Virus record (IMG/VR): IMGVR_UViG_2606217100_000004
Length of the DNA: 18,323 nt
Direction: 5' to 3' (one strand)
Origin: a virus
Taxonomy: Duplodnaviria; Heunggongvirae; Uroviricota; Caudoviricetes
The translations under genes were made by a program, and so were the position numbers. Positions 1 through 17,085 of this stretch are shown here, piece by piece (position 1 is the stretch's first letter; each line of letters opens with the position of its first letter). The notes beneath the pieces were generated by a model, which saw nothing but the letters and a program-made list of their open reading frames with translations, made no database searches and was not told the origin of the DNA.

Positions 1-783
1 ATGAAGATCGTAAAGGCTGAAGTTTTTGTTACCTGTCCGGGGCGTAATTTCGTCACATTAAAAATCACCACTGAGGACGGTATTACGGGCCTTGGGGATG
101 CCACCCTCAATGGACGTGAGCTTTCCGTGGCCTCTTATTTGCAGGATCACCTTTGTCCGCAGCTTATTGGTCGCGATGCGCACCGTATCGAAGATATCTG
201 GCAGTTTTTCTATAAAGGTGCTTACTGGCGTCGCGGTCCGGTTACGATGTCGGCCATTTCAGCGGTTGATATGGCGCTGTGGGATATTAAAGCCAAAGCT
301 GCCAACATGCCGCTTTACCAGTTACTCGGCGGCGCGTCTCGTGAAGGGGTGATGGTTTATTGCCATACCACCGGTCACAGTATTGATGAAGCTCTGGATG
401 ATTATGCCCGTCATCAGGAGCTGGGATTCAAAGCCATCCGCGTGCAGTGCGGAATCCCTGGTATGAAAACCACCTACGGCATGTCGAAAGGTAAAGGTCT
501 GGCTTATGAACCCGCAACCAAAGGACAGTGGCCGGAAGAGCAGCTGTGGTCGACGGAGAAATACCTCGATTTCATGCCGAAATTGTTTGACGCGGTACGT
601 AACAAGTTTGGTTTTAATGAACATTTGCTGCATGACATGCACCATCGCTTAACGCCTATTGAAGCGGCGCGCTTTGGTAAAAGCATTGAAGATTATCGCA
701 TGTTCTGGATGGAAGACCCGACGCCTGCAGAAAACCAGGAATGCTTCCGTCTCATTCGCCAACATAGCGGAACTGTTTGCTGA
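1..783 (+). CDS. rspA: Starvation-sensing protein RspA (enolase-superfamily D-mannonate dehydratase family), 5' portion only; frame ends prematurely at a junction with prophage DNA
   Basis: ORF starts at nt 1 ([30 protein letters not shown]...), which I recognise as RspA. Full-length proteins of this family are about 400 aa; here the frame stops after 260 aa and the last residues (SGTVC) look junction-derived. Confidence 0.8.
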
Positions 784-847
784 GAACACCGTGCGGTGTC
801 TTGATGGAAAGTAATTTAGAATAACCTAACACGAGAGGCAAGTGTTT

Positions 848-867
848 TTGTTAGATTTGTCTAACAA
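848..867. promoter_or_regulatory. Perfect 8-4-8 palindrome TTGTTAGA-tttg-TCTAACAA, candidate DicA-type operator downstream of dicA
   Basis: Read directly from the sequence. The same half-sites recur at 1360-1377 in the dicA-dicC intergenic region. Confidence 0.5.
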
Positions 868-902
868 AAAGGGTGGGCGCAACTAATCACTTGAAAAGAA
901 TG

Positions 903-1310
903 TTATTTTATTGATTTATTTTTACGCGCTTTAAGCATTTCTTCGAAGAGTTTGTTGAAGTTTTCTACTCTTGAGCGCATTTCAGACAGTAAGGCTTCCT
1001 GCTCGGAAGATGGAAGAGCATCGAATAATTCGATCAATTCTTTGTGGTTGGGAGTTAGCTCTGTTTCCACATGTAGTTCTTGTGCAGGCACTGGTGCCTT
1101 GTCTTCGTCACCAAACATTAGCCATGTAGGTGAGCACTTCAGAGCATCCGCTAAAGCAAACAATCGTTTTCCGACTGGCTGGGTTTCGTCTCTTTCCCAT
1201 TGTGAAATTGTGACGTGAGCAACTCCAGCGAGGCGCGCAGCTTCTCGTTGTGTTAAGCGTAATTCTTTTCGTCGCGCCAGAACTCGCTGGCCTAGGGTTC
1301 TTGTATCCAT
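903..1310 (-). CDS. dicA: DicA-like HTH (XRE-family) prophage repressor
   Basis: 135-aa ORF with an N-terminal HTH (LRLTQREAARLAGVAHVTISQWERDETQP) and a C-terminus (VENFNKLFEEMLKARK) closely resembling K-12 DicA as I recall it. Divergent from a Cro-like gene. Confidence 0.8.
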   Translation of the reverse strand: MDTRTLGQRVLARRKELRLTQREAARLAGVAHVTISQWERDETQPVGKRLFALADALKCSPTWLMFGDEDKAPVPAQELHVETELTPNHKELIELFDALPSSEQEALLSEMRSRVENFNKLFEEMLKARKNKSIK

Positions 1311-1332
1311 AGTTAGGTAATTCTAATTTTTC

Positions 1333-1377
1333 TTGACTTAGGTATCCCGCGCACAATAATGTTAGAAAAGTCTAACA
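1333..1377 (+). promoter_or_regulatory. Candidate dicC promoter (-35 TTGACT 1333-1338, 17-bp spacer, -10 ATAATG 1356-1361) overlapped by a palindromic operator TGTTAGA-aaag-TCTAACA (1360-1377)
   Basis: Near-consensus sigma70 hexamers with 17-bp spacing seen directly. The palindrome shares its half-sites with 848-867. Confidence 0.5.
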
Positions 1378-1387
1378 ATAGGGGGCT

Positions 1388-1618
1388 TTGATGCTTAAAG
1401 TTGACGCAATTACTTTTTTTGGCAGCAAAACAAAGCTTGCCAATGCCGCAGGAGTGAGGCTGGCAAGTGTTGCTGCTTGGGGGATACTGGTTCCTGAAGG
1501 TCGCGCGATGCGTCTACAGGAGGCATCTGGCGGGGAGCTTCAGTATGATCCCAAAGTTTATGACGAATATCGTAAGACGAAGCGGGCGGGGCGGTTGAAC
1601 AATGAAAATCACTCCTGA
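1388..1618 (+). CDS. dicC: DicC-like (Cro-type) small regulator
   Basis: 76-aa ORF divergent from dicA. The C-terminal half (LVPEGRAMRLQEASGGELQYDPKVYDEY) matches my recollection of DicC. Confidence 0.75.
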   Translation: MMLKVDAITFFGSKTKLANAAGVRLASVAAWGILVPEGRAMRLQEASGGELQYDPKVYDEYRKTKRAGRLNNENHS

Positions 1619-2123
1619 ACAGGCTCGTGAGGCTCTGGATGCCTGGATATGTCGACCAGGAATGACACAGGAGCAGGCGACGATATTAATCACTGAAGCA
1701 TTCTGGGCTTTGAAAGAGCGCCCGAACATCGATGTTCAGCGTGTCACAGATGAAGGTGGCGCGGTTGATCAGCGAGCACTTGGCGTTAATCGAGTGAAGA
1801 TATTCGAACGCTGGAAGGCTATCGACACCAGGGATAAGCGTGAAAAGTTCACGGCGCTAGTGCCTGCAATTATGGAGGCTATCCGGATTAATGATTTCAG
1901 GTTGTATCGTGAAATTAGTGACGGAAAAAGCATCACGTACATGATCGCCGGGTTAAACAAAGAATATGGCGATGTGGTGGAGTCCGGACTGCTTTTTGCT
2001 GATCCTGCCGTAGTGGATCGTGAAACTGACGAACTTATAGAAAAAGCAATTGCTTTCAAACTTGCGTATCGACAGCAATACCAACAAAAAGCTGGATGGA
2101 ATTATGAGCCTTCTTTTTGCTGA
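1602..2123 (+). CDS. Hypothetical prophage early-region protein (possibly YdaT-like)
   Basis: 173-aa ORF whose start overlaps the dicC stop, in the position of a cII or YdaT-type gene. Family assignment is not verified. Confidence 0.5.
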   Translation: MKITPEQAREALDAWICRPGMTQEQATILITEAFWALKERPNIDVQRVTDEGGAVDQRALGVNRVKIFERWKAIDTRDKREKFTALVPAIMEAIRINDFRLYREISDGKSITYMIAGLNKEYGDVVESGLLFADPAVVDRETDELIEKAIAFKLAYRQQYQQKAGWNYEPSFC

Positions 2124-3069
2124 ACGCCCACTGGTTATAAACACACAGCTTGCGATGAAGATTGGCTTAAATGAAGCCATTGTGTTGCAGCAGTTGCATT
2201 ACTGGTTGAGAGATACCAATTCCGGCATGGAATGTGATGGTGTTCGCTGGATTTACAACACAACGGAACAATGGCTGGAACAGTTCCCATTCTGGTCAGA
2301 GTCAACGTTAAAGCGCGCGTTTGCAAGTCTGAAAACGCTGGGGCTTTTGCGTTGTGAAAAGCTCAATAAATCAAAGCGCGATATGACCAATTTCTACACG
2401 ATTAACTATGGGAGCGAGCTTTTAGATGATGGCAAATTGAGCGAATCCATCGGTTCAAAATGCGCCGCTCCATCAGGTCAAAATGACACGATGGAAGAGG
2501 TCAAAATGAAACGCTCCATTGGTTCAAAACGACCCAATGTCATCGGGTCAAAATGGCCCGATGATCCTACAGAGAATACAACAGAGATTACTACAGAGAA
2601 TAAAAACACTTTTCGTCCGGAAGCTTCGCAACCGGACCCGCAGACGGCTGAACAGGATTTTTTAATCCGGCACCCTGGCGCAGTTGTGTTTAGTGCGAAA
2701 AAACGCCAGTGGGGTAGCCAGGAGGATCTGGCGTGTGCGCAGTGGATATGGTGGCGGATCGTGGGTCTCTACGAACAGGCCGCCAGTGATGATGGCGAGA
2801 TCATGCGACCAAAAGAGCCTAACTGGACTGTCTGGGCCAATGATGTGCGCACAATGCGGATGCTGGATGGCAGAAGCCACAGACAAATTTGTGAAATGTT
2901 TGGTCGGGTACAGCGGGATCCATTCTGGGTAAAAAACATCATGAGCCCGTCAAAGCTCCGCGAAAAATGGGACGAACTGGTCATCCGCCTGGGGCGTTCA
3001 CCTGTACAGCGTTGTGTTAATCATATTTCTGAACCGGATACAGAAATTCCGCCTGGTTTCAGAGGATAA
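2104..3069 (+). CDS. Phage replication initiator (O-like replisome organiser with an iteron-encoding linker and a DnaT-like C-terminal region)
   Basis: ATG at 2104 is preferred over TTG at 2050 because it overlaps the upstream stop by only 20 nt. The N-terminal winged-HTH-like region resembles phage replication organisers, and the gene body contains five iteron-like repeats. Confidence 0.65.
   Translation: MSLLFAERPLVINTQLAMKIGLNEAIVLQQLHYWLRDTNSGMECDGVRWIYNTTEQWLEQFPFWSESTLKRAFASLKTLGLLRCEKLNKSKRDMTNFYTINYGSELLDDGKLSESIGSKCAAPSGQNDTMEEVKMKRSIGSKRPNVIGSKWPDDPTENTTEITTENKNTFRPEASQPDPQTAEQDFLIRHPGAVVFSAKKRQWGSQEDLACAQWIWWRIVGLYEQAASDDGEIMRPKEPNWTVWANDVRTMRMLDGRSHRQICEMFGRVQRDPFWVKNIMSPSKLREKWDELVIRLGRSPVQRCVNHISEPDTEIPPGFRG
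2445..2608. repeat. Candidate prophage origin of replication: five iterons (core GGTYCAAAAYG) at about 23-bp spacing, followed by short ACAGAGA direct repeats
   Basis: Iteron cores at 2452-2462, 2476-2485, 2499-2508, 2521-2531 and 2546-2555, each preceded by TCCATYRG-like sequence. ACAGAGAATA/ACAGAGATTA repeats lie at 2568-2608. The layout matches lambda-type ori inside the O gene. Confidence 0.6.
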
Positions 3070-3109
3070 GTTTTGATTTCAGGTCATGAGGTAATTTTAA
3101 GGGGGACTT

Positions 3110-3511
3110 GTGGCAAAAGTTTTTACACAAGAAGAGCGGGAAAAAATTAAAGGGCAGGTGGTGGAACTCGTGCGCCAGAGCGGTCGTGAGACGTTACGGC
3201 AACTGGAAGCTAAAACAGGTGCGACTAGATATCTGATGAGCGTTCTTGCCAGAGAGCTGGTAGCCAGTGGCGATGTATACAACTCCGGCTACGGGTTATT
3301 CCCGTCTGAACAGGCGCGTAAGGACTGGCAAAACGCCCGCAAAAAACTCTCGAGGGCAAAGGTGAAGAAAACAGCTGTGGTTGATCCGGACCTTATCTGG
3401 TCGTTACCTGATGGAGAAATACGTCGCTACGACAGTCGCCTAAACATAATCTGTCGCGAGTGCCGGATGAGTGAAGTTATGCAGCGCATACTGGCATTTT
3501 ATCAGGGATAA
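3110..3511 (+). CDS. Hypothetical prophage protein with a possible HTH
   Basis: 133-aa ORF with a GTG start at 3110 and a strong SD (AAGGGGGAC) upstream. Composition matches the phage backbone, not the AT-rich retron. Confidence 0.5.
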   Translation: MAKVFTQEEREKIKGQVVELVRQSGRETLRQLEAKTGATRYLMSVLARELVASGDVYNSGYGLFPSEQARKDWQNARKKLSRAKVKKTAVVDPDLIWSLPDGEIRRYDSRLNIICRECRMSEVMQRILAFYQG

Positions 3512-3778
3512 TGTTAGGTATTTTAGACGTTACTAGATTAAAAAGCATTAGTTCAGGAGTGAATTGACATTCTCATTTTTCATGGCACAGGGTAGATCTG
3601 GCGTGGTTGTCCGCTTTGTGCCAGAGGCGGACGTTGTTAAAATAGAAAATATCCCAACCTTGTATGAGTCGTGCAATAATTTCGAACTTTATACAAAGCT
3701 TTGGTTGTAAAGGTGTATAACCACAAGTGACATTAATCACATTTGTAAAGGCAAAATGCAACAAACTGAATTAGTTAA

Positions 3779-3806
3779 TTGCGTAAATTTGAAGTTATGT
3801 TAAGGT
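3779..3806 (+). promoter_or_regulatory. Candidate retron promoter (-35 TTGCGT 3779-3784, 16-bp spacer, -10 TAAGGT 3801-3806)
   Basis: The hexamers place a transcription start at about 3813, coinciding with the first base of the a1 inverted repeat. Motif-level evidence only. Confidence 0.3.
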
Positions 3807-3812
3807 GGTGAT

Positions 3813-3945
3813 GGTTTATGGGCAGATTTTGGGTCGCGTTTCGCGATCAGTGAAAAAAATGTCCGATAGGATTGCCTTTCAGGATCTCATGTTCCTCGCA
3901 TTTCTTAAGGTTCTTGTCAAGTTTGCGTAAGAGTGCCCATAAACC
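3813..3945 (+). ncRNA. Candidate retron msr-msd (template for msDNA), bounded by a1/a2 inverted repeats
   Basis: Perfect 12-nt inverted repeat: GGTTTATGGGCA (3813-3824) and TGCCCATAAACC (3934-3945). A G follows a1 at 3825 (candidate branching G), and a2 ends 19 nt before the RT start codon. The 133-nt span is a plausible size for an msr-msd. Exact ends are not determined. Confidence 0.45.
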
Positions 3946-3964
3946 CTTTTAGAGGCGATCTAAA

Positions 3965-5800
3965 GTGAAACGACTACAATCATTAAAAGAAGCAAAAACA
4001 AAACCAGACTTGGCTAAGCTATTAGGAATCAAACCTTCAGCGTTAACATACTGCCTATATGTATTAAAACCTGAAAATCAATACACACAGTTTAAGATAC
4101 CAAAAAAAAATGGCGGCGAACGGATAATAAGTGCACCTAACGGAATATTAAAGACGATACAGTCATCCTTATCAGGACTGCTTCTAGATTGCTTAGACGA
4201 AATAGTTTGCATTAAGTTTCCAGACTCAGAGTTAGCAAGGCAGAAAGCAAAAAACTCAAAAATATTAAAGTTAAAATGTTCCAACTCAGAAATCAAACAA
4301 CCCTCACTGTCTCATGGATTTGAAAGAAAGCGTTCAATTATTACAAATGCAATGATGCATTTGGGGAAAAAATATGTTTTTAATATAGACTTGGATAATT
4401 TTTTCGGCAGTTTTAACTTTGGTAGAGTCCGAGGTTTTTTCATAAAAAATAGAAACTTTGCACTCGATCCGGAAATCGCAACTGTAATTGCTAAAATTGC
4501 GTGCTACAACAATGAACTACCCCAAGGCAGCCCATGCTCCCCAGTAATCACTAATCTAATCATTCACTCGTTAGACATTAAACTGGCAGCGATTGCATCA
4601 AGAAACTCATCCACTTTTACAAGATATGCTGATGATATTACATTCTCTACGAGGAAGGGGGCGTTTCCTTCTGCTATAGCAAAAAATCAAAATGGTAAAT
4701 ATATCGTTAGTAAGAAAATTAGGGGCGAGATAACTCGCTCAGGTTTTATAATTAATGATGGGAAGACAAGAAATCAGTATAAAGACTCGAGGCAAGATGT
4801 AACAGGCTTAGTGGTTAATAAAAAGCCAAACACGAAAAAAGAATATTGGAGGCTTGTGCGTGCGCAATGTGACCATTTATTTAAACATGGTGAGTTCTTA
4901 GAGGTGATTGACGGCAAGGAAATAAAGGGGAATGTTAATAGCCTTGCAGGCAAACTTAACTTCATAGACCAAGTTGACCACTATAATAGATTGCGTCAAG
5001 GCGAAAAATTAAATCCAAAATATCACTTAAAAAAAGATGCCAATAAAAATGGCCATGCCAAAAAAAGGCGTTACTTGCATAGTTCTAGAGAAAAAACGTT
5101 TAGTGAGTTTCTCTTCTATCGTTTATTTTATGGCAATGAATTACCAACAATTCTTACGGAAGGTAAAACTGACAATATTTATCTGAAGGCAGCAATACAT
5201 AAGTTAGCCTCATCATTCCCTAATTTGGCGGTAGCTGAAAGTCCAGGGCTCTCTTATAAGCCACGGACTAAATTTGTTAACTACAATGAGCGGACAAAAT
5301 ATTTACTTGAACTTTATGGTGGCGCTGATTATTTAAAGGATTTTGTTATTCATTATAAACAACACTTTAATCGTTATAAGGCTCCCAAACCATCTAATCC
5401 AGTAATTATACTTGTTGATAATGATAGCGGACCAAAAGATCTGATTAATTACGTTAGTAAAGTTGATAATATTGGTATTTTCCCCACAGGTGTTCCAGAT
5501 ATCCGCGCCTCTGAGTTTGTACATATTTTTTGTAATCTTTATTTAGTGCTTACCCCTCAAGTTAAGGGATATACAGGAACTGATATAGAGCATTTTTTTA
5601 AAGATGCAGATCGACTTAGACCACATAAAGGTAAGTTTTTCAATACAGTCTCTAAGCGTGATCATGATAATGATTTGAGCAAGGAATCTTTCGCAACTCA
5701 TATTGTTCATGCCCACAAGCATGAAATTGATTTTAGTGGATTTACAAGCCTGTTAGAACGGTTAGTAAAAGTCATAAATCACTTTGACACTGTTAAGTAA
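3965..5800 (+). CDS. Retron-type reverse transcriptase fused to a C-terminal TOPRIM-like domain (Retron-Eco2/Ec67-like)
   Basis: 611-aa ORF with a GTG start. RT motifs appear in order: NAMMH (NAxxH), NIDLDNFF, LPQGSPCSP, YADD (nt 4625-4636), VTGLVVN (VTG). The C-terminal part has TEGKTD (E codon 5159-5161) and VDNDSG (DxD), the TOPRIM E...DxD signature. The gene is strongly AT-rich compared with its flanks. Confidence 0.85.
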   Translation: MKRLQSLKEAKTKPDLAKLLGIKPSALTYCLYVLKPENQYTQFKIPKKNGGERIISAPNGILKTIQSSLSGLLLDCLDEIVCIKFPDSELARQKAKNSKILKLKCSNSEIKQPSLSHGFERKRSIITNAMMHLGKKYVFNIDLDNFFGSFNFGRVRGFFIKNRNFALDPEIATVIAKIACYNNELPQGSPCSPVITNLIIHSLDIKLAAIASRNSSTFTRYADDITFSTRKGAFPSAIAKNQNGKYIVSKKIRGEITRSGFIINDGKTRNQYKDSRQDVTGLVVNKKPNTKKEYWRLVRAQCDHLFKHGEFLEVIDGKEIKGNVNSLAGKLNFIDQVDHYNRLRQGEKLNPKYHLKKDANKNGHAKKRRYLHSSREKTFSEFLFYRLFYGNELPTILTEGKTDNIYLKAAIHKLASSFPNLAVAESPGLSYKPRTKFVNYNERTKYLLELYGGADYLKDFVIHYKQHFNRYKAPKPSNPVIILVDNDSGPKDLINYVSKVDNIGIFPTGVPDIRASEFVHIFCNLYLVLTPQVKGYTGTDIEHFFKDADRLRPHKGKFFNTVSKRDHDNDLSKESFATHIVHAHKHEIDFSGFTSLLERLVKVINHFDTVK

Positions 5801-6361
5801 TATTATGATGCGCACTGATTATTCCTTATTCAGCTAAAATTTCTACTGTAGTCCCAACTTCCGTTCCTCGCTCAAAGCGGACTAAAAGGTTAGCTTGTGT
5901 CGGACTTTGCGTATTAAAAGAAGTGCTGGTGGTGACTAGTGGTTGAGCCCCATTTCCACAGAAAAAATCAGAGAAACTATACCCAATAGTTGTATTGAAT
6001 CACTGACGAGACAGCCTCATATTCATCAGGACTGGTGTACGTCCAATACAGGAGGTTGTGGTGCTGGTTCTCAAATGTGCGCTGGCTATTACGGCTGTAA
6101 TGGCGATTTATTGTCTTGCTATTGTTCTTATGGATCGCCTTTCTGACTGATTTCATATTGGCGAGGTAACGGTAGTTAAGTAGAATGGCTGCGGGTGCTT
6201 GAGGCTATCTGCCTCGGGCATGAACACCAAAGGCAGATAGAGAAAAGCCCCAGTTAACATTACGCGTCCTGCAAGACGCTTAACATTAATCTGAGGCCAA
6301 TTTCATGCTAGACACATGTAGGTTAGCCTCTTACGTGCCGGAAGGCAAGGAGAAGCAGGCT

Positions 6362-6517
6362 ATGAAGCAGCAAAAGGCGATGTTAATCGCCCTGATCGTC
6401 ATCTGTTTAACCGTCATAGTGACGGCACTGGTAACGAGGAAAGACCTCTGCGAGGTACGAATCCGAACCGGCCAGACGGAGGTCGCTGTCTTCACAGCTT
6501 ACGAACCTGAGGAGTAA
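6362..6517 (+). CDS. hokD: Hok-family membrane toxin (HokD/RelF-like); in-frame upstream extension from 6305
   Basis: MKQQKAMLIALIVICLTVIVTALVTRKDLCEVRIRTGQTEVAVFTAYEPEE: a 51-aa single-TM Hok peptide with an AGGAGA SD upstream. A 3' fold-back hairpin and a terminator follow. Confidence 0.85.
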   Translation: MKQQKAMLIALIVICLTVIVTALVTRKDLCEVRIRTGQTEVAVFTAYEPEE

Positions 6518-6585
6518 GAGACCCGGCGAGGGAGAAATCCCTCGCCACCTCTGATGTGGCAGGCATCCTCAACGCACCCGCACTT

Positions 6586-6612
6586 AACCCGCTTCGGCGG
6601 GTTTTTGTTTTT
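6586..6612 (+). terminator. Intrinsic terminator downstream of hokD
   Basis: Stem CCCGC/GCGGG with a TTCG loop, followed by TTTTTGTTTTT. Confidence 0.6.
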
Positions 6613-6733
6613 ATTTTCAACGCGTTTGAAGTTCTGGACGGTGCCGGAATAGAATCAAAAATACTTAAGTAGCGCGCAGGGATAAGAGGGATGGTCCCTT
6701 AAAGGGGAGAGCTAATTATCCGGAAGGATTCTG

Positions 6734-6985
6734 ATGATGAACATCGAAGAACTGCGTAAAATTTTTTGTGAAGATGGCCTCTATGCTGTGTGCGTTGAAA
6801 ATGGAAATCTTGTTAGTCATTACCGCATTATGTGTTTGCGAAAGAATGGGGCTGCGTTAATTAATTTTGTGGATGGTCGAGTGACAGACGGATTTATCTT
6901 GCGCGAAGGTGAGTTTGTCACTTCATTACAGGCACTGAAAGAGATCGGAATAAAAGCAGGCTTTTCAGCTTTTGCAGAAGAATAA
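6734..6985 (+). CDS. rem: Rem-like small prophage protein
   Basis: 83-aa ORF (MMNIEELRKIFCEDGLYAVCVENGN...) with a GGAAGGA SD, lying between hokD and the DUF968 gene as in Qin-type prophages. Confidence 0.65.
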   Translation: MMNIEELRKIFCEDGLYAVCVENGNLVSHYRIMCLRKNGAALINFVDGRVTDGFILREGEFVTSLQALKEIGIKAGFSAFAEE

Positions 6986-7051
6986 ACTCATCTACAATCT
7001 TGCGCGGGGCTGAACTCCCGCTGAGTAACACCGTGCCACCGGAGAAAACCG

Positions 7052-7330
7052 ATGGCACGCAACGTAAAATATTACAATTCTGATAATTCGCCCGTTCTTG
7101 TCTGCACGCACGAGCGGTATTCTCACGCATTCAAGTCTGAATGGTTCCAACACCCTCCATGCACTGAAGAGCAGGCTGAATGGATAATTCAGTGTTACCG
7201 CAGGCGCGGATACGAGGTTAAGAAAGCCCTTAGCCTCGACTACCGTCACTGGATAATCTCAGTCAGATTGCCTTACTCCGAACGCCCACCACGTGCGTCC
7301 CGCACTTTCCAGCAACGGATCTGGAGGTAA
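7052..7330 (+). CDS. Hypothetical prophage protein
   Basis: 92-aa ORF with a GGAGAAAA SD; its stop overlaps the SD of the next gene, suggesting translational coupling. Confidence 0.45.
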   Translation: MARNVKYYNSDNSPVLVCTHERYSHAFKSEWFQHPPCTEEQAEWIIQCYRRRGYEVKKALSLDYRHWIISVRLPYSERPPRASRTFQQRIWR

Positions 7331-7331
7331 C

Positions 7332-8381
7332 GTGCGGGTATTACTTAGACCTGTTCTGGTGCCTGAGCTTGGGCTGGTGGTCCTTAAGCCGGGCCGTGAA
7401 TCCATACAGATATTTCATAATCCTCGAGTGCTGGTGGAACCGGAACCAAAAAGCATGCGTAATCTGCCATCCGGAGTCGTTCCTGCCGTTCGCCAGTCGC
7501 TGGCGGAAGACAAAACATTGCTGCCGTTTTTTAGTAACGAACGGGTGATTCGTGCTGCTGGCGGTGTTGGCGCATTGTCTGACTGGCTATTACGTCATGT
7601 TACATCCTGCCAGTGGCCTAATGGCGATTACCATCACTCTGAAACAGTCATTCACCGTTATGGTACCGGCGCAATGGTGTTGTGTTGGCACTGCGACAAC
7701 CAACTGCGTGACCAGACATCGGAATCACTGGAGCTGCTTGCTCAACAAAATCTGACAGCATGGGTGATTGACGTCATCCGTCACGCAATAAGCGGTACGC
7801 AGGAGCGGGAATTATCTTTGGCTGAATTATCCTGGTGGGCGGTCTGCAATCAGGTGGTGGATGCACTACCTGAGGCTGTATCGCGTCGTTCGCTGGGATT
7901 ACCAGCGGAAAAAATCTGCTCGGTGTACCGCGAAAGCGACATCGTACCGGGAGAGCAGACCGCCACCAGCATATTGAAACAACGCACAAAAAATCTTGCA
8001 CCGTTGCCTTACGCCCACCAGCAACAAAAAACACCACAGGAAAAGACGGTGGTAAGCATCACCGTTGATCCAGAGTCTCCGGAATCTTTCATGAAGCTGC
8101 CTAAACGTCGCCGCTGGGTTAAGGAGAAATACACACGTTGGGTTAAGACACAGCCGTGTGCTTGCTGCGGTATGCCAGCCGACGATCCGCATCATCTGAT
8201 TGGTCACGGGCAGGGCGGAATGGGAACAAAAGCACATGATCTCTTTGTGTTGCCTTTGTGCAGAAAGCATCACAACGAGCTGCATACGGATACAGTGGCA
8301 TTTGAAGAGAAGTATGGCTCCCAACTGGAGCTGATATTTCGTTTTATCGATCGCGCGCTGGCAATTGGCGTACTGGCGTAA
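7332..8381 (+). CDS. ydfU: DUF968-family prophage protein (YdfU-like)
   Basis: GTG start at 7332 preceded by GGAGGT. The C-terminus has Cys/His clusters ([18 protein letters not shown]...CRKHHNELH) as in the lambdoid DUF968 protein upstream of Q. Confidence 0.7.
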
Positions 8382-10481: not shown

Positions 10482-10703
10482 GGTAATATTAAATCGGAAC
10501 ATTTACATCGCGGAATGTAAAATTTAAATAAAAAGGACTCTTCCATGAGCCAAAATTCCTGAAATCTTAAGGGTAAGATAAAAGGTCTTAATCAGAATGA
10601 CACGTTTTATTAATAAATAAAGCTATTCTTTCATTGCTGTGTTTTTCTTTACAAAAGTAATCCTTGCTATGGGTGGTTAATCATGCGTTAATGGTGTTCT
10701 GGT

Positions 10704-10740
10704 TTGTTACAAATTTATCTGAAGCAGTCATTGTTATAAT
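10704..10740 (+). promoter_or_regulatory. Candidate cspI promoter with extended -10 (TGtTATAAT at 10732-10740) and a roughly 100-nt AT-rich leader
   Basis: TGnTATAAT motif seen directly. A long AT-rich 5' UTR is typical of CspA-family cold-shock genes. Confidence 0.3.
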
Positions 10741-10843
10741 TTTATTATTTGTACCTCTTGAGATTTCCTTGTTGGTTTTTCTCTCTGATATTTTTTTTCG
10801 GACCATTCTGCCCAAGGGCTAATTTCTTCAAAAGGTAATAATT

Positions 10844-11056
10844 ATGTCTAACAAAATGACTGGTTTAGTGAAATGGTTTAACCCTGAAAAAGGTTTTGGT
10901 TTCATCACGCCGAAAGATGGCAGCAAAGATGTGTTTGTCCATTTCTCAGCAATTCAGAGCAACGATTTCAAAACATTAACTGAGAATCAGGAAGTTGAAT
11001 TTGGTATTGAGAACGGACCTAAAGGTCCTGCCGCTGTTCATGTAGTGGCGCTTTGA
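10844..11056 (+). CDS. cspI: CspA-family cold-shock protein
   Basis: 70 aa, [23 protein letters not shown]...VHFSAI: RNP1/RNP2 cold-shock domain motifs. Confidence 0.9.
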
Positions 11057-11260
11057 GGTAGACAATATTACAAACCATATTCACTTTAGATGCCCGTGTT
11101 GTCATGGTTCCCAGTATAGAACATCATCTTTTGATGTTTCTGACATGAATCCTTTCGGGGCAAAATGTATCTTTTGTAAATCAATGATGATTACATTTGA
11201 TAATATTTCACAATACTTAAATGCCAGCCGTCTGTCGTTGGATTTAAAAAAGTGAAAATG

Positions 11261-12054: not shown

Positions 12055-12465
12055 TTAGCGTGGTAAGATCTGTGTAGTTTTCTGGATGCTTTCAGTAAAT
12101 AGTAATGAGTTATCAAAGGCATAGTAATATCTTTGGTGTTCCTGGATATTTGTAACCCATCGGAAAACTCCTGCTTTAGCAAGATTTTCCCTGTATTGTT
12201 GAAATGTGATTTCTTTTGATTTCAACTTATTATAGGAGGTCTCTATAAGATGTTTGTTTCTGGAGAATTTAACATTTACAACCTTTTTGAGTCCTTTTAC
12301 TAACACTATGTTGTCGTTTTCTAACACAATGTGAATATTATCTGTGGCTAAATAGTAAATATAAAGTGAGACATTGTGACGTTTTAGCTCAGAATAAAAT
12401 AATTCACAGTTTAAATCTTTACGCACTTGATCGAATATTTCTTTAAAAATGGCAGCCTGAGCCAT
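12055..12465 (-). CDS. ydfO: DUF1398-family prophage protein (YdfO-like)
   Basis: Start chosen at the internal Met ([17 protein letters not shown]...). [13 protein letters not shown] and [30 protein letters not shown] resemble YdfO as I recall it. Confidence 0.7.
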
Positions 12466-16510: not shown

Positions 16511-17085
16511 TGGCATTCAGAATGAGTGAACAACCACGGACCATAAAAATTTATAATCTGCTGGCCGGAACTAATGAATTTATTGGTGAAGGTGACGCAT
16601 ATATTCCGCCTCATACAGGTCTGCCAGCAAACAGTATCGATATTGCACCGCCAGATATTCCGGCAGGCTTCGTGGCTGTTTTCAACAGTGATGAGGCATC
16701 GTGGCATCTCGTTGAAGATCATCGGGGTAAAACGGTTTATGACGTGGCTTCCGGCGACGCGTTATTTATTTCTGAACTCGGTCCGTTACCGGAAAATGTT
16801 ACCTGGTTATCGCCGGGAGGGGAATATCAGAAGTGGAACGGCACAGCCTGGGTGAAGGATACGGAAGCAGAAAAACTGTTCCGGATCCGGGAGGCGGAAG
16901 AAACAAAAAACAGCCTGATGCAGGTAGCCAGTGAGCATATTGCGCCGCTTCAGGATGCTGCAGATCTGGAAATTGCAACGGAGGAAGAAATCTCGTTGCT
17001 GGAAGCATGGAAAAAGTATCGGGTATTGCTGAACCGTGTTGATACGTCAACTGCACAGGATATTGAATGGCCAGCACTGCCGTAG
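16510..17085 (+). CDS. tfaQ: Tail fibre assembly protein (Tfa)
   Basis: 191 aa; ATG overlaps the stf stop (ATAATGG), and the product resembles Tfa chaperones (…[14 protein letters not shown]…EWPALP). Confidence 0.8.

Follow-up and report, generated by a model that had tools for sequence, protein, structure and literature searches.

The window, by which we mean the whole stretch of 18,323 bp that was analysed, carries a repressor gene on the minus strand (903-1310) and a divergent cro-like gene on the plus strand (1391-1618), separated by an intergenic region of 80 bp (1311-1390). The repressor is a 135-aa protein of the DicA family (Pfam HTH_3, E=1.5e-14) with a P22-C2-like helix-turn-helix N-terminal domain followed by a short C-terminal domain. 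It is 56% identical to K-12 DicA over 132 aa (E=1e-54), the C-terminal half included, and its residues 1-71 match the structures of the P22 C2 N-terminal domain (1adr/2r1j, E=1e-18). Only HTH-type matches were returned by Pfam for this product, and an S24 peptidase domain was absent. The original prediction, made from the sequence of the window, had named the gene dicA; the assignment to the family stands, but the gene is a heteroimmune allele and not K-12 dicA itself. The 75-aa product of the divergent gene belongs to the DicC/P22-Cro family (Pfam P22_Cro, E=4.9e-12) and shares 86% identity with K-12 DicC, from which it departs mainly within its first 31 residues. Downstream of it lie a YdaT-like gene, a replication-type gene and a DUF977 gene. 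The RefSeq labels in the matching prophage are HTH-domain protein, Cro/CI family regulator and YdaT family protein, and homologues in phage records are annotated dicA and dicC. Further to the right, the ORF at 6734-6985 (plus strand) corresponds to rem, the Qin-type DicA antirepressor, and is annotated as such in the collinear intact relative (L001); in K-12, Rem relieves DicA repression (PMC10448788).

The repressor gene is flanked by two copies of one palindrome. When the 18,323 bp were searched for TGTTAGA-N4-TCTAACA with ≤2 mismatches allowed, it was found with 0 mismatches at 849-866 and at 1360-1377, and the window contained no further match at this threshold. The chance expectation is 0.07, and two matches were seen in 0 of 200 dinucleotide shuffles. 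On the plus strand, 848-867 reads TTGTTAGA-TTTG-TCTAACAA, and the dyad is perfect out to 11+4+11 (845-870). The right copy, 1360-1377, reads TGTTAGA-AAAG-TCTAACA; taken at 20 bp (1359-1378) its outermost pair is broken, with A in place of T, giving (A)TGTTAGA-AAAG-TCTAACA(A). Both palindromes had been anticipated: direct reading confirmed the one at 848-867, and the copy described as near-identical at 1360-1377 in fact has exactly the same TGTTAGA-N4-TCTAACA arms. Two weaker sites had been missed by the original prediction, which was right about its two palindromes: a third match at 814-831 (3 mismatches) and a fourth site at 1311-1328 (4 mismatches). A further match with 3 mismatches at 12309-12326 was rejected as being at chance level (0.78 expected). 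Lying on either side of a DicA-type repressor gene, the two palindromes are most likely its operators for the dicC and dicB-operon promoters, with binding predicted from the sequence.

On the right side, the promoter of the dicC homologue (the equivalent of lambda PR) occupies 1333-1360 on the plus strand and matches 10 of the 12 consensus positions (TTGACT-16-AATAAT), with the -35 at 1333-1338, a spacer of 16 bp and the -10 at 1355-1360. It was the sole sigma-70-like match in a promoter scan of 700-1700, and its -35 is conserved in 5 of 6 heteroimmune loci. The predicted right operator (1359-1378, ATGTTAGA-AAAG-TCTAACAA) covers both the end of the -10 and the start, which would be expected near 1367; the palindrome proper begins at the final base of the -10 (1360), in accord with the overlap with a near-consensus dicC promoter that had been proposed. 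It aligns column for column with K-12 Oc, so that a 20-bp inverted-repeat operator over the dicC -10 is present here as well. The weak operator-like site at 1311-1328 (AGTTAGG-TAAT-TCTAATT, 4 mismatches) abuts the ATG of the repressor gene and aligns with K-12 AGTTAGC-TAAT-GCTAAAT. It is probably the equivalent of the K-12 site 'Oa', and its status as an operator is uncertain.

On the left side, a putative leftward promoter (the equivalent of dicBp and of lambda PL) lies at 813-841 on the minus strand, with the -35 TTGCCT at 841-836, a 17-bp spacer and the -10 TAAATT at 818-813. At 8 of 12 consensus positions it fell below the threshold of the promoter scan and was not called. The arrangement TTGnnn-17-TAnnnT is kept in position across all the heteroimmune loci, and from the alignment transcription would be expected to start near 806. 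The perfect palindrome at 848-867 lies 36 nt past the repressor stop codon and 7 bp upstream of the leftward -35, with its centre at about -50 to -51. The weak candidate site at 814-831 (on the minus strand TGTTAGG-TTAT-TCTAAAT, 3 mismatches) fills the spacer of the leftward promoter and overlaps its -10, at 35 bp centre-to-centre from 848-867. As the perfect site is thus distal and 814-831 proximal with respect to TTGCCT-17-TAAATT, 848-867 is the predicted promoter-distal left operator. It had originally been placed where the dicB-operon promoter would lie. Both K-12 and the intact relative do have that promoter there, upstream of ydfA, but the palindrome is its distal site and the promoter core is overlapped by 814-831.

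The region of 848-867 is homologous to the K-12 dicA-ydfA intergenic region, and the arms of the palindrome are identical, at equal offset, in E. ruysiae, E. albertii, BL21 and SW071614, with central bases that vary. The comparative data suggest that the two sites, 35 bp apart and bracketing the -35, are the DicA sites at dicBp. Further into the direction of leftward transcription, the window retains the start of the dicB-operon leader, with an inverted repeat ACACCG-N2-CGGTGT at 786-799 (minus strand). This repeat is identical in K-12, BL21 and SW071614; in Citrobacter and Enterobacter loci the dyad is kept and the sequence is different. A consensus fold of the leader across the heteroimmune loci, made from a poor alignment, contained 7 pairs, 2 of them with a compensatory change. 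Rfam, with matches admitted up to E≤1, gave none in the immunity region or in the intact relative's dicB-operon leader.

To the left of 765 the window consists of rspA. The 5' fragment of this gene (starvation-sensing protein; 1-766, plus strand) is truncated by a deletion, its frame running on to a stop at 781-783; as far as about 766-769, many E. coli genomes have an rspA that is 99.5% identical to it. In a base-by-base comparison with BL21 rspA it diverges after ...CGCCAACATA. Prophage homology begins at 765, and from there onward the sequence is 99-100% identical to a prophage whose neighbour is rspB and which about 560 of 5,426 complete E. coli genomes carry, B/BL21, C and SW071614 among them. 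In SW071614 the order is rspB, int, xis, exo, ydfD, dicB, ydfC, ydfB, ydfA, repressor, cro-like gene. The window is collinear with it and shows one mismatch over the stretch that extends from 765 to 7700 or beyond. We compared rspA (...CGCCAACATA|CCGTC, that is ...AACATA|CCGTC), the intact prophage (...CGCCGGGGTA|GCGGAACTG, that is ...GGGGTA|GCGGAACTG) and the window (...CGCCAACATAGCGGAACTG). This three-way comparison places the deletion junction at 765-766, where rspA is joined to the dicB-operon leader, and it gives a microhomology of 2 bp, TA. The ends of overlapping BLAST matches had pointed to a 5-bp microhomology, TAGCG, which the base-by-base comparison rejected.

The missing sequence amounts to about 7.4 kb and comprises the 3' third of rspA, rspB, int, xis, exo, ydfD, dicB (with dicF), ydfC, ydfB, ydfA and the end of the leader. 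The window therefore has no dicB operon (ydfABC-dicF-dicB-ydfD). As the operon is present in the near-identical SW071614, its absence is due to a secondary deletion and not to a different architecture. The junction was spanned in 0 of the 5,426 complete E. coli genomes. As read from the assembled sequence the deletion is real, and with the left operon gone, one operator has indeed been orphaned by it, as had been proposed. The left promoter and its two predicted operators appear intact and would now control nothing but a short antisense read.

We then compared the immunity regions of related prophages. A scan of one genome per species yielded 21 loci with DicA relatives that were 46-99% identical, in Escherichia, Citrobacter, Enterobacter, Symbiopectobacterium and others. 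Every intact locus has its best upstream palindrome 65-68 nt before the ATG, and the sequence of this palindrome varies with the immunity type. The arms are TGTTAGA/TCTAACA in the window type, TGTTAGT/ACTAACA in the K-12 type, TGTTAGG/TCTAACA in Citrobacter, CCTTAGG/CCTAAGA in E. hormaechei, TGTTGAG/TTTAACA in C. braakii and TATTGAG/CTCAATG in another group; two distant types have TAAC-N4-GTTA. When six heteroimmune types were aligned, 4 of 6 arm positions changed on both arms and yet stayed complementary. Complementary cells made up 91.7% of the total, compared to 8-44% when the partner was slid by 1-3 columns. Moreover, the Oc-type sequence of each type matched its own downstream region best (diagonal sum of 32 mismatches versus 52.9 +/- 4.1 in permuted data, 11 types). 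The observed pairing or co-variation score was reached by 0 of 500 shuffles and a diagonal sum as low by 0 of 20,000 permutations, counts that overstate independence and are not probabilities because the loci are related by descent. The equivalent of Oc was chosen automatically as the best palindrome, which gave the wrong register in the distant loci L018, L019 and L021 and works against the co-variation result.

In the window type, the K-12 type and five other types, a distance of 34-36 bp separates the best two downstream matches, and in K-12 and about nine other loci the downstream pair, with this spacing of 34-36 bp, brackets a conserved TTGnnn-17-TAnnnT. Arms that are shared between two places and that differ from type to type would be predicted if one DNA-binding protein recognises both places, and not if there were two independent hairpins. 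A point on the other side is the E. hormaechei locus L008, in which helix 3 of the repressor is identical and the operator is different.

Viral contigs (IMG/VR) were scanned for TTGTTAGA-N4-TCTAACAA, which was found in at least 120 contigs. Among the matches listed, 80 contigs had a DicA homologue within 150 bp of the site, and both sites were present in 59 of the 64 contigs whose repressor was ≥90% identical. As the scan selected on the downstream site, the arms of this site are conserved by construction and only the upstream site provides independent evidence. In 15 aligned variants of the upstream site, among the matches listed, the arms are invariant except for the innermost base of the right arm, which is C or A in place of T in a few contigs, and the central 4 bp and the flanks vary. 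Fixed arms around a variable centre are the signature that would be expected of an operator in which the central bases are not recognised individually. The same arms were also found, again among the matches listed, in 14 contigs that have the helix VAHVTISQWE in common and whose repressors are 52-56% identical.

The closest studied counterpart of this locus is the Qin (Kim) prophage of K-12. The order and orientation of the left operon, the repressor and the divergent cro-like gene are the same, the repressor has 135 aa in both, and rem is present. Oc is a 20-bp inverted repeat that stands at an equal offset (-67/-68 from the ATG) and adjoins the dicC -10; the leftward -35 lies between two sites with a spacing of 35 bp, and the leader downstream of them is identical. 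The right side of K-12 reads ...TTGACT-17-TATCTT-GTTAGTTATGACTAACAAT..., and its dicA-ydfA spacer contains TGTTAGC-TATA-GCATACA and TGTTAGT-CATG-GCTAATC, 35 bp apart, around TTGACC-17-TAATCT. The arms in the window (TGTTAGA/TCTAACA) differ from those of K-12 (TGTTAGT/ACTAACA) in the innermost base only, on both arms, from T to A and from A to T. Such a symmetric change would be expected if the specificity of a dimer had altered. The window has a perfect distal left site, whereas in K-12 this site has 4 mismatches to Oc, and the K-12 middle site Om has no counterpart here. The right arm of the window is more complete, with the ydaT-like, replication and DUF977 genes where K-12 has ydfX/ydfW. 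Unlike in K-12, the whole dicB operon is deleted.

Published work on K-12 gives these positions a function. K-12 Oc (TTGTTAGTCATAACTAACAA) is bound by DicA in vivo and mediates DicA-dependent repression there, and one substitution in an arm abolishes both (Yun et al., PMC3441716). Repression through Oc depends on dicA and returns when DicA is supplied from a plasmid (PMC3441716). The dicC promoter, for which 5'RACE gave the start, has its -10 overlapped by Oc, and from Oc DicA activates the transcription of dicA as well (PMC3441716). The weak sites Om and Oa are not bound by DicA (in the case of Oa, by DicA alone) in vivo in K-12 (PMC3441716), so the candidate weak sites of the window may not be operators of the repressor. 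At dicBp, DicA represses 22-fold in K-12, and derepression follows the deletion of dicA and not of dicC (PMC10448788). Even for K-12, the place at which DicA binds there is described as unknown or as low in evidence (PMC7567609). Three operator-like sequences per side, analogous to lambda OR and OL, have been described for K-12 Qin by sequence only (PMC10448788, PMC3441716).

The region also resembles P22 immC. The DNA-binding domain of C2 is homologous to residues 1-71 of the repressor, and the cro-like protein belongs to the Pfam family P22_Cro. P22 operators are 18 bp long, with 7-bp arms and a variable centre of 4 bp, and the sites described here would match this geometry. The arm sequence differs, however, and two convincing sites per side are present instead of three. 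The repressor has 135 aa compared to 216 aa in C2 and is without the C-terminal S24, RecA-cleavable domain (PMC10448788), and induction is by antirepressor and not by cleavage. The likeness to lambda CI/Cro is one of logic. A repressor holds a PR-like and a PL-like promoter through matching operators that flank the repressor gene, and it is opposed by the product of a divergent cro-like gene. There are differences in the details of the protein families and in the length and spacing of the operators (35 bp on the left), and our site searches found one strong and one weak site per side compared to three adjacent operators per side in the lambda type. The resemblance is in the way of working and not in membership. 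A functional likeness only is seen with GfoR/GfhR of the Gifsy prophages; these repressors are short and non-cleavable, lose their activity through a small antirepressor and have been likened to DicA/Rem (PMC10448788).

Three other explanations of the palindromes can be weighed against these data. [quoted passage not shown] Their positions would suit such a role, the left site lying 36 nt past the dicA stop and the right site starting at about +1 of dicC, and both folds are more stable than those of shuffled sequences (-9.7 kcal/mol, z=-4.2, for 836-882 on the minus strand; -9.6 kcal/mol, z=-3.3, for 1350-1390 on the plus strand). RNA pairing, too, would account for the conserved dyad symmetry. 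However, the stems are A+T-rich and are followed by runs of A, not of U, on the dicA-sense strand; a terminator at 848-867 was rejected on the grounds of its A+T-rich stem, the absence of a U tail on either strand and the absence of a call in the terminator scan. Independent hairpins give no reason for arms that are shared between two places and that change together across immunity types. Within an immunity type it is the arm sequence, and not merely the pairing, that is fixed, whereas the central 4 bp are free to vary. When DicA represses a heterologous promoter in K-12, one substitution in an arm is enough to abolish this repression (PMC3441716). We consider RNA hairpins the least probable of the alternatives. 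That the left palindrome is a decaying relic, or a sequence which arose by chance or by duplication at the border of the deletion, and would be functionless even in intact relatives, appears highly improbable as well. It does control no gene any longer, and the homologous distal site in K-12 is degenerate, with 4 mismatches to Oc. Nevertheless, the palindrome is perfect, with a dyad of 11+4+11, it lies 80 bp inside the retained sequence and not at the junction, and its arms are identical in relatives with a complete left operon (SW071614, BL21, E. ruysiae, E. albertii) and in 59 viral contigs among the matches listed. As the window has 1 base difference from the intact relative in 6.9 kb, too little time has passed since the deletion for decay to tell us anything.

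The sites could also be operators that are recognised mainly by the DicC homologue or by another factor, and not by the repressor encoded at 903-1310. In lambdoid switches Cro and the repressor share operators, and the differences between the DicC homologue and K-12 DicC, which fall mainly in the first 31 residues, are in step with the change of operator. In addition, overproduction of DicC represses dicA in O157:H7, as cited in PMC10448788. In K-12, however, repression through Oc requires dicA and is restored by plasmid DicA (PMC3441716), and it is the deletion of dicA, not of dicC, that derepresses dicBp (PMC10448788). The operator arms, moreover, track helix 3 of the repressor in contigs, among the matches listed, whose repressors are otherwise about 55% identical. 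The main explanation already includes joint use of the sites by the two proteins, so only exclusive use by DicC would be an alternative, and we regard it as very unlikely, if the least so of the three.

In our judgement the window very probably carries a lambdoid immunity region of the Qin/P22-immC type next to rspB, in which the repressor holds both promoters through TGTTAGA-N4-TCTAACA operators and from which the left operon has been deleted, with binding predicted from sequence comparison. The DicA-type switch with matching operators put forward in the original prediction is thus supported by the homology of the two proteins to DicA and DicC, by the position of the Oc-type site, by the left-promoter region and by the deletion. 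The repressor would most likely bind as a dimer to the 18-bp TGTTAGA-N4-TCTAACA operators. Dimers at 1359-1378 would occlude the rightward -10 and start and so keep the dicC homologue and the early genes (ydaT-like, replication) off, and by analogy with K-12 the repressor may stimulate its own weak promoter. Dimers at 848-867 and 814-831 would hold the leftward promoter, which in intact relatives precedes ydfA-ydfB-ydfC-dicF-dicB-ydfD-exo-xis-int. Competition for these sites presumably comes from the Cro-like DicC homologue, which possibly prefers 1311-1328 and would, by binding there, turn the repressor off; Rem (6734-6985) would lift repression. As the 7.4-kb deletion extends from the interior of rspA to 40 nt downstream of the leftward start, the leftward promoter would now read about 40 nt of leader and then run antisense into the rspA stub.

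By analogy with lambda CI at OL and OR, the distal left and Oc-type operators, 511 bp apart, may interact by DNA looping, which we think conceivable but improbable. If it were true, repression of the rightward promoter would be tighter and autoregulation would be tuned, and the left site would be functional despite the loss of the left operon. As there are about 20 DicA molecules per cell in K-12, an additional high-affinity site would then be quantitatively important.

The system as such is already known, as it matches the published model of Qin immunity, and the understanding of such switches is unchanged. What is new is a predicted heteroimmune operator that differs from Oc by a symmetric change of the inner base, together with comparative support for a bipartite left operator at dicBp, for which the literature still gives the DicA site as unknown (PMC7567609). 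[quoted passage not shown] For annotation, the value lies in assigning putative operators and the two early promoters to a heteroimmune Qin-type prophage that is common. The series of operator variants would moreover constitute a natural specificity table for the repressors of the DicA family.

We compared the immunity region of the window with the DicA-relative locus of Enterobacter hormaechei (L008), whose repressor has a helix 3 identical to that of the window repressor (VAHVTISQWERDE). The predicted operators differ, reading CCTTAGG/CCTAAG in L008 (positions 1395-1510 compared) versus TGTTAGA/TCTAACA in the window (1300-1400 compared), and the start of repressor helix 2 differs as well (LSQAA in L008, LTQRE in the window). 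As the same helix 3 is found with different operators and with a different beginning of helix 2, the base specificity of the outer operator arms is probably set outside helix 3. At least 14 IMG/VR contigs (loci L028, L029, L042, L043, L045, L046, L057, L063, L078, L087 and others) encode a repressor that is only 52-56% identical to that of the window and differs in its C-terminal half; the recognition helix is the same. These contigs carry the perfect TGTTAGA-N4-TCTAACA palindrome, whose centre precedes the matched portion of the gene by 71.5 bp; in the 150 bp downstream, no copy of it with at most 1 mismatch was seen.

Two weak operator-like sites in the window, 1311-1328 and 813-830, match each other at 16 of 18 positions in inverted orientation and resemble each other more than either resembles the perfect palindrome. 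Inside the 1311-1328 element, on the dicA-sense strand and 9 nt before the ATG, lies TAGAAT (1325-1320), a possible -10 element for a nearly leaderless dicA mRNA, which would be reminiscent of lambda cI transcribed from PRM. A usable -35 to go with this hexamer was not seen. Far from the immunity region, 12309-12326 (TGTTGTC-GTTT-TCTAACA) has 3 mismatches to the operator pattern, and we rejected it as an operator because 0.78 matches are expected by chance at this stringency.

The sense strand of the dicB-operon leader is the minus strand, and its inverted repeat ACACCG-N2-CGGTGT lies at 786-799; the full leader element is found in the collinear intact locus of E. coli SW071614 (L001, about 5972-6050). 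Intact relatives have, after the repeat, a conserved GTTCCGC motif and then a second hairpin, CCCC-GGCGTTAA-GGGG, immediately ahead of ydfA. The window retains the first hairpin only. Both dyads are maintained in Citrobacter and Enterobacter loci in changed sequence, as in AATCAC...GTGATT and CCCTG...CAGGG, suggesting that the leader RNA is structured, possibly in a nut- or put-like manner. An automatic consensus fold of the leader gave weak support, and an Rfam search with the leader returned no match.

Elsewhere in the window, Rfam matches at gathering-score level were sok antitoxin RNA adjoining hokD (6193-6367), the cspA-type 5' UTR thermoregulator of a Qin-type csp gene (10698-11083) and IS009 RNA (16853-17051). 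Between a DUF977 gene and hokD lies a reverse transcriptase gene (3965-5800, plus strand, 611 aa; Pfam RVT_1, E=6e-16); the SW071614 record, which is collinear here, annotates it as a retron Ec67-family RT/endonuclease. In BL21(DE3) DUF977 directly adjoins hokD, and the reverse transcriptase gene therefore appears to be inserted cargo. The interval 3512-3964 yielded neither an identifiable msr/msd RNA nor any Rfam match.

Across 765-7700, position 2570 is the sole base that differs from SW071614, an isolate from wastewater in the Galapagos. Judged by this near-identity, the deletion is very recent relative to the SW071614 lineage, or else the source is closely related to SW071614.
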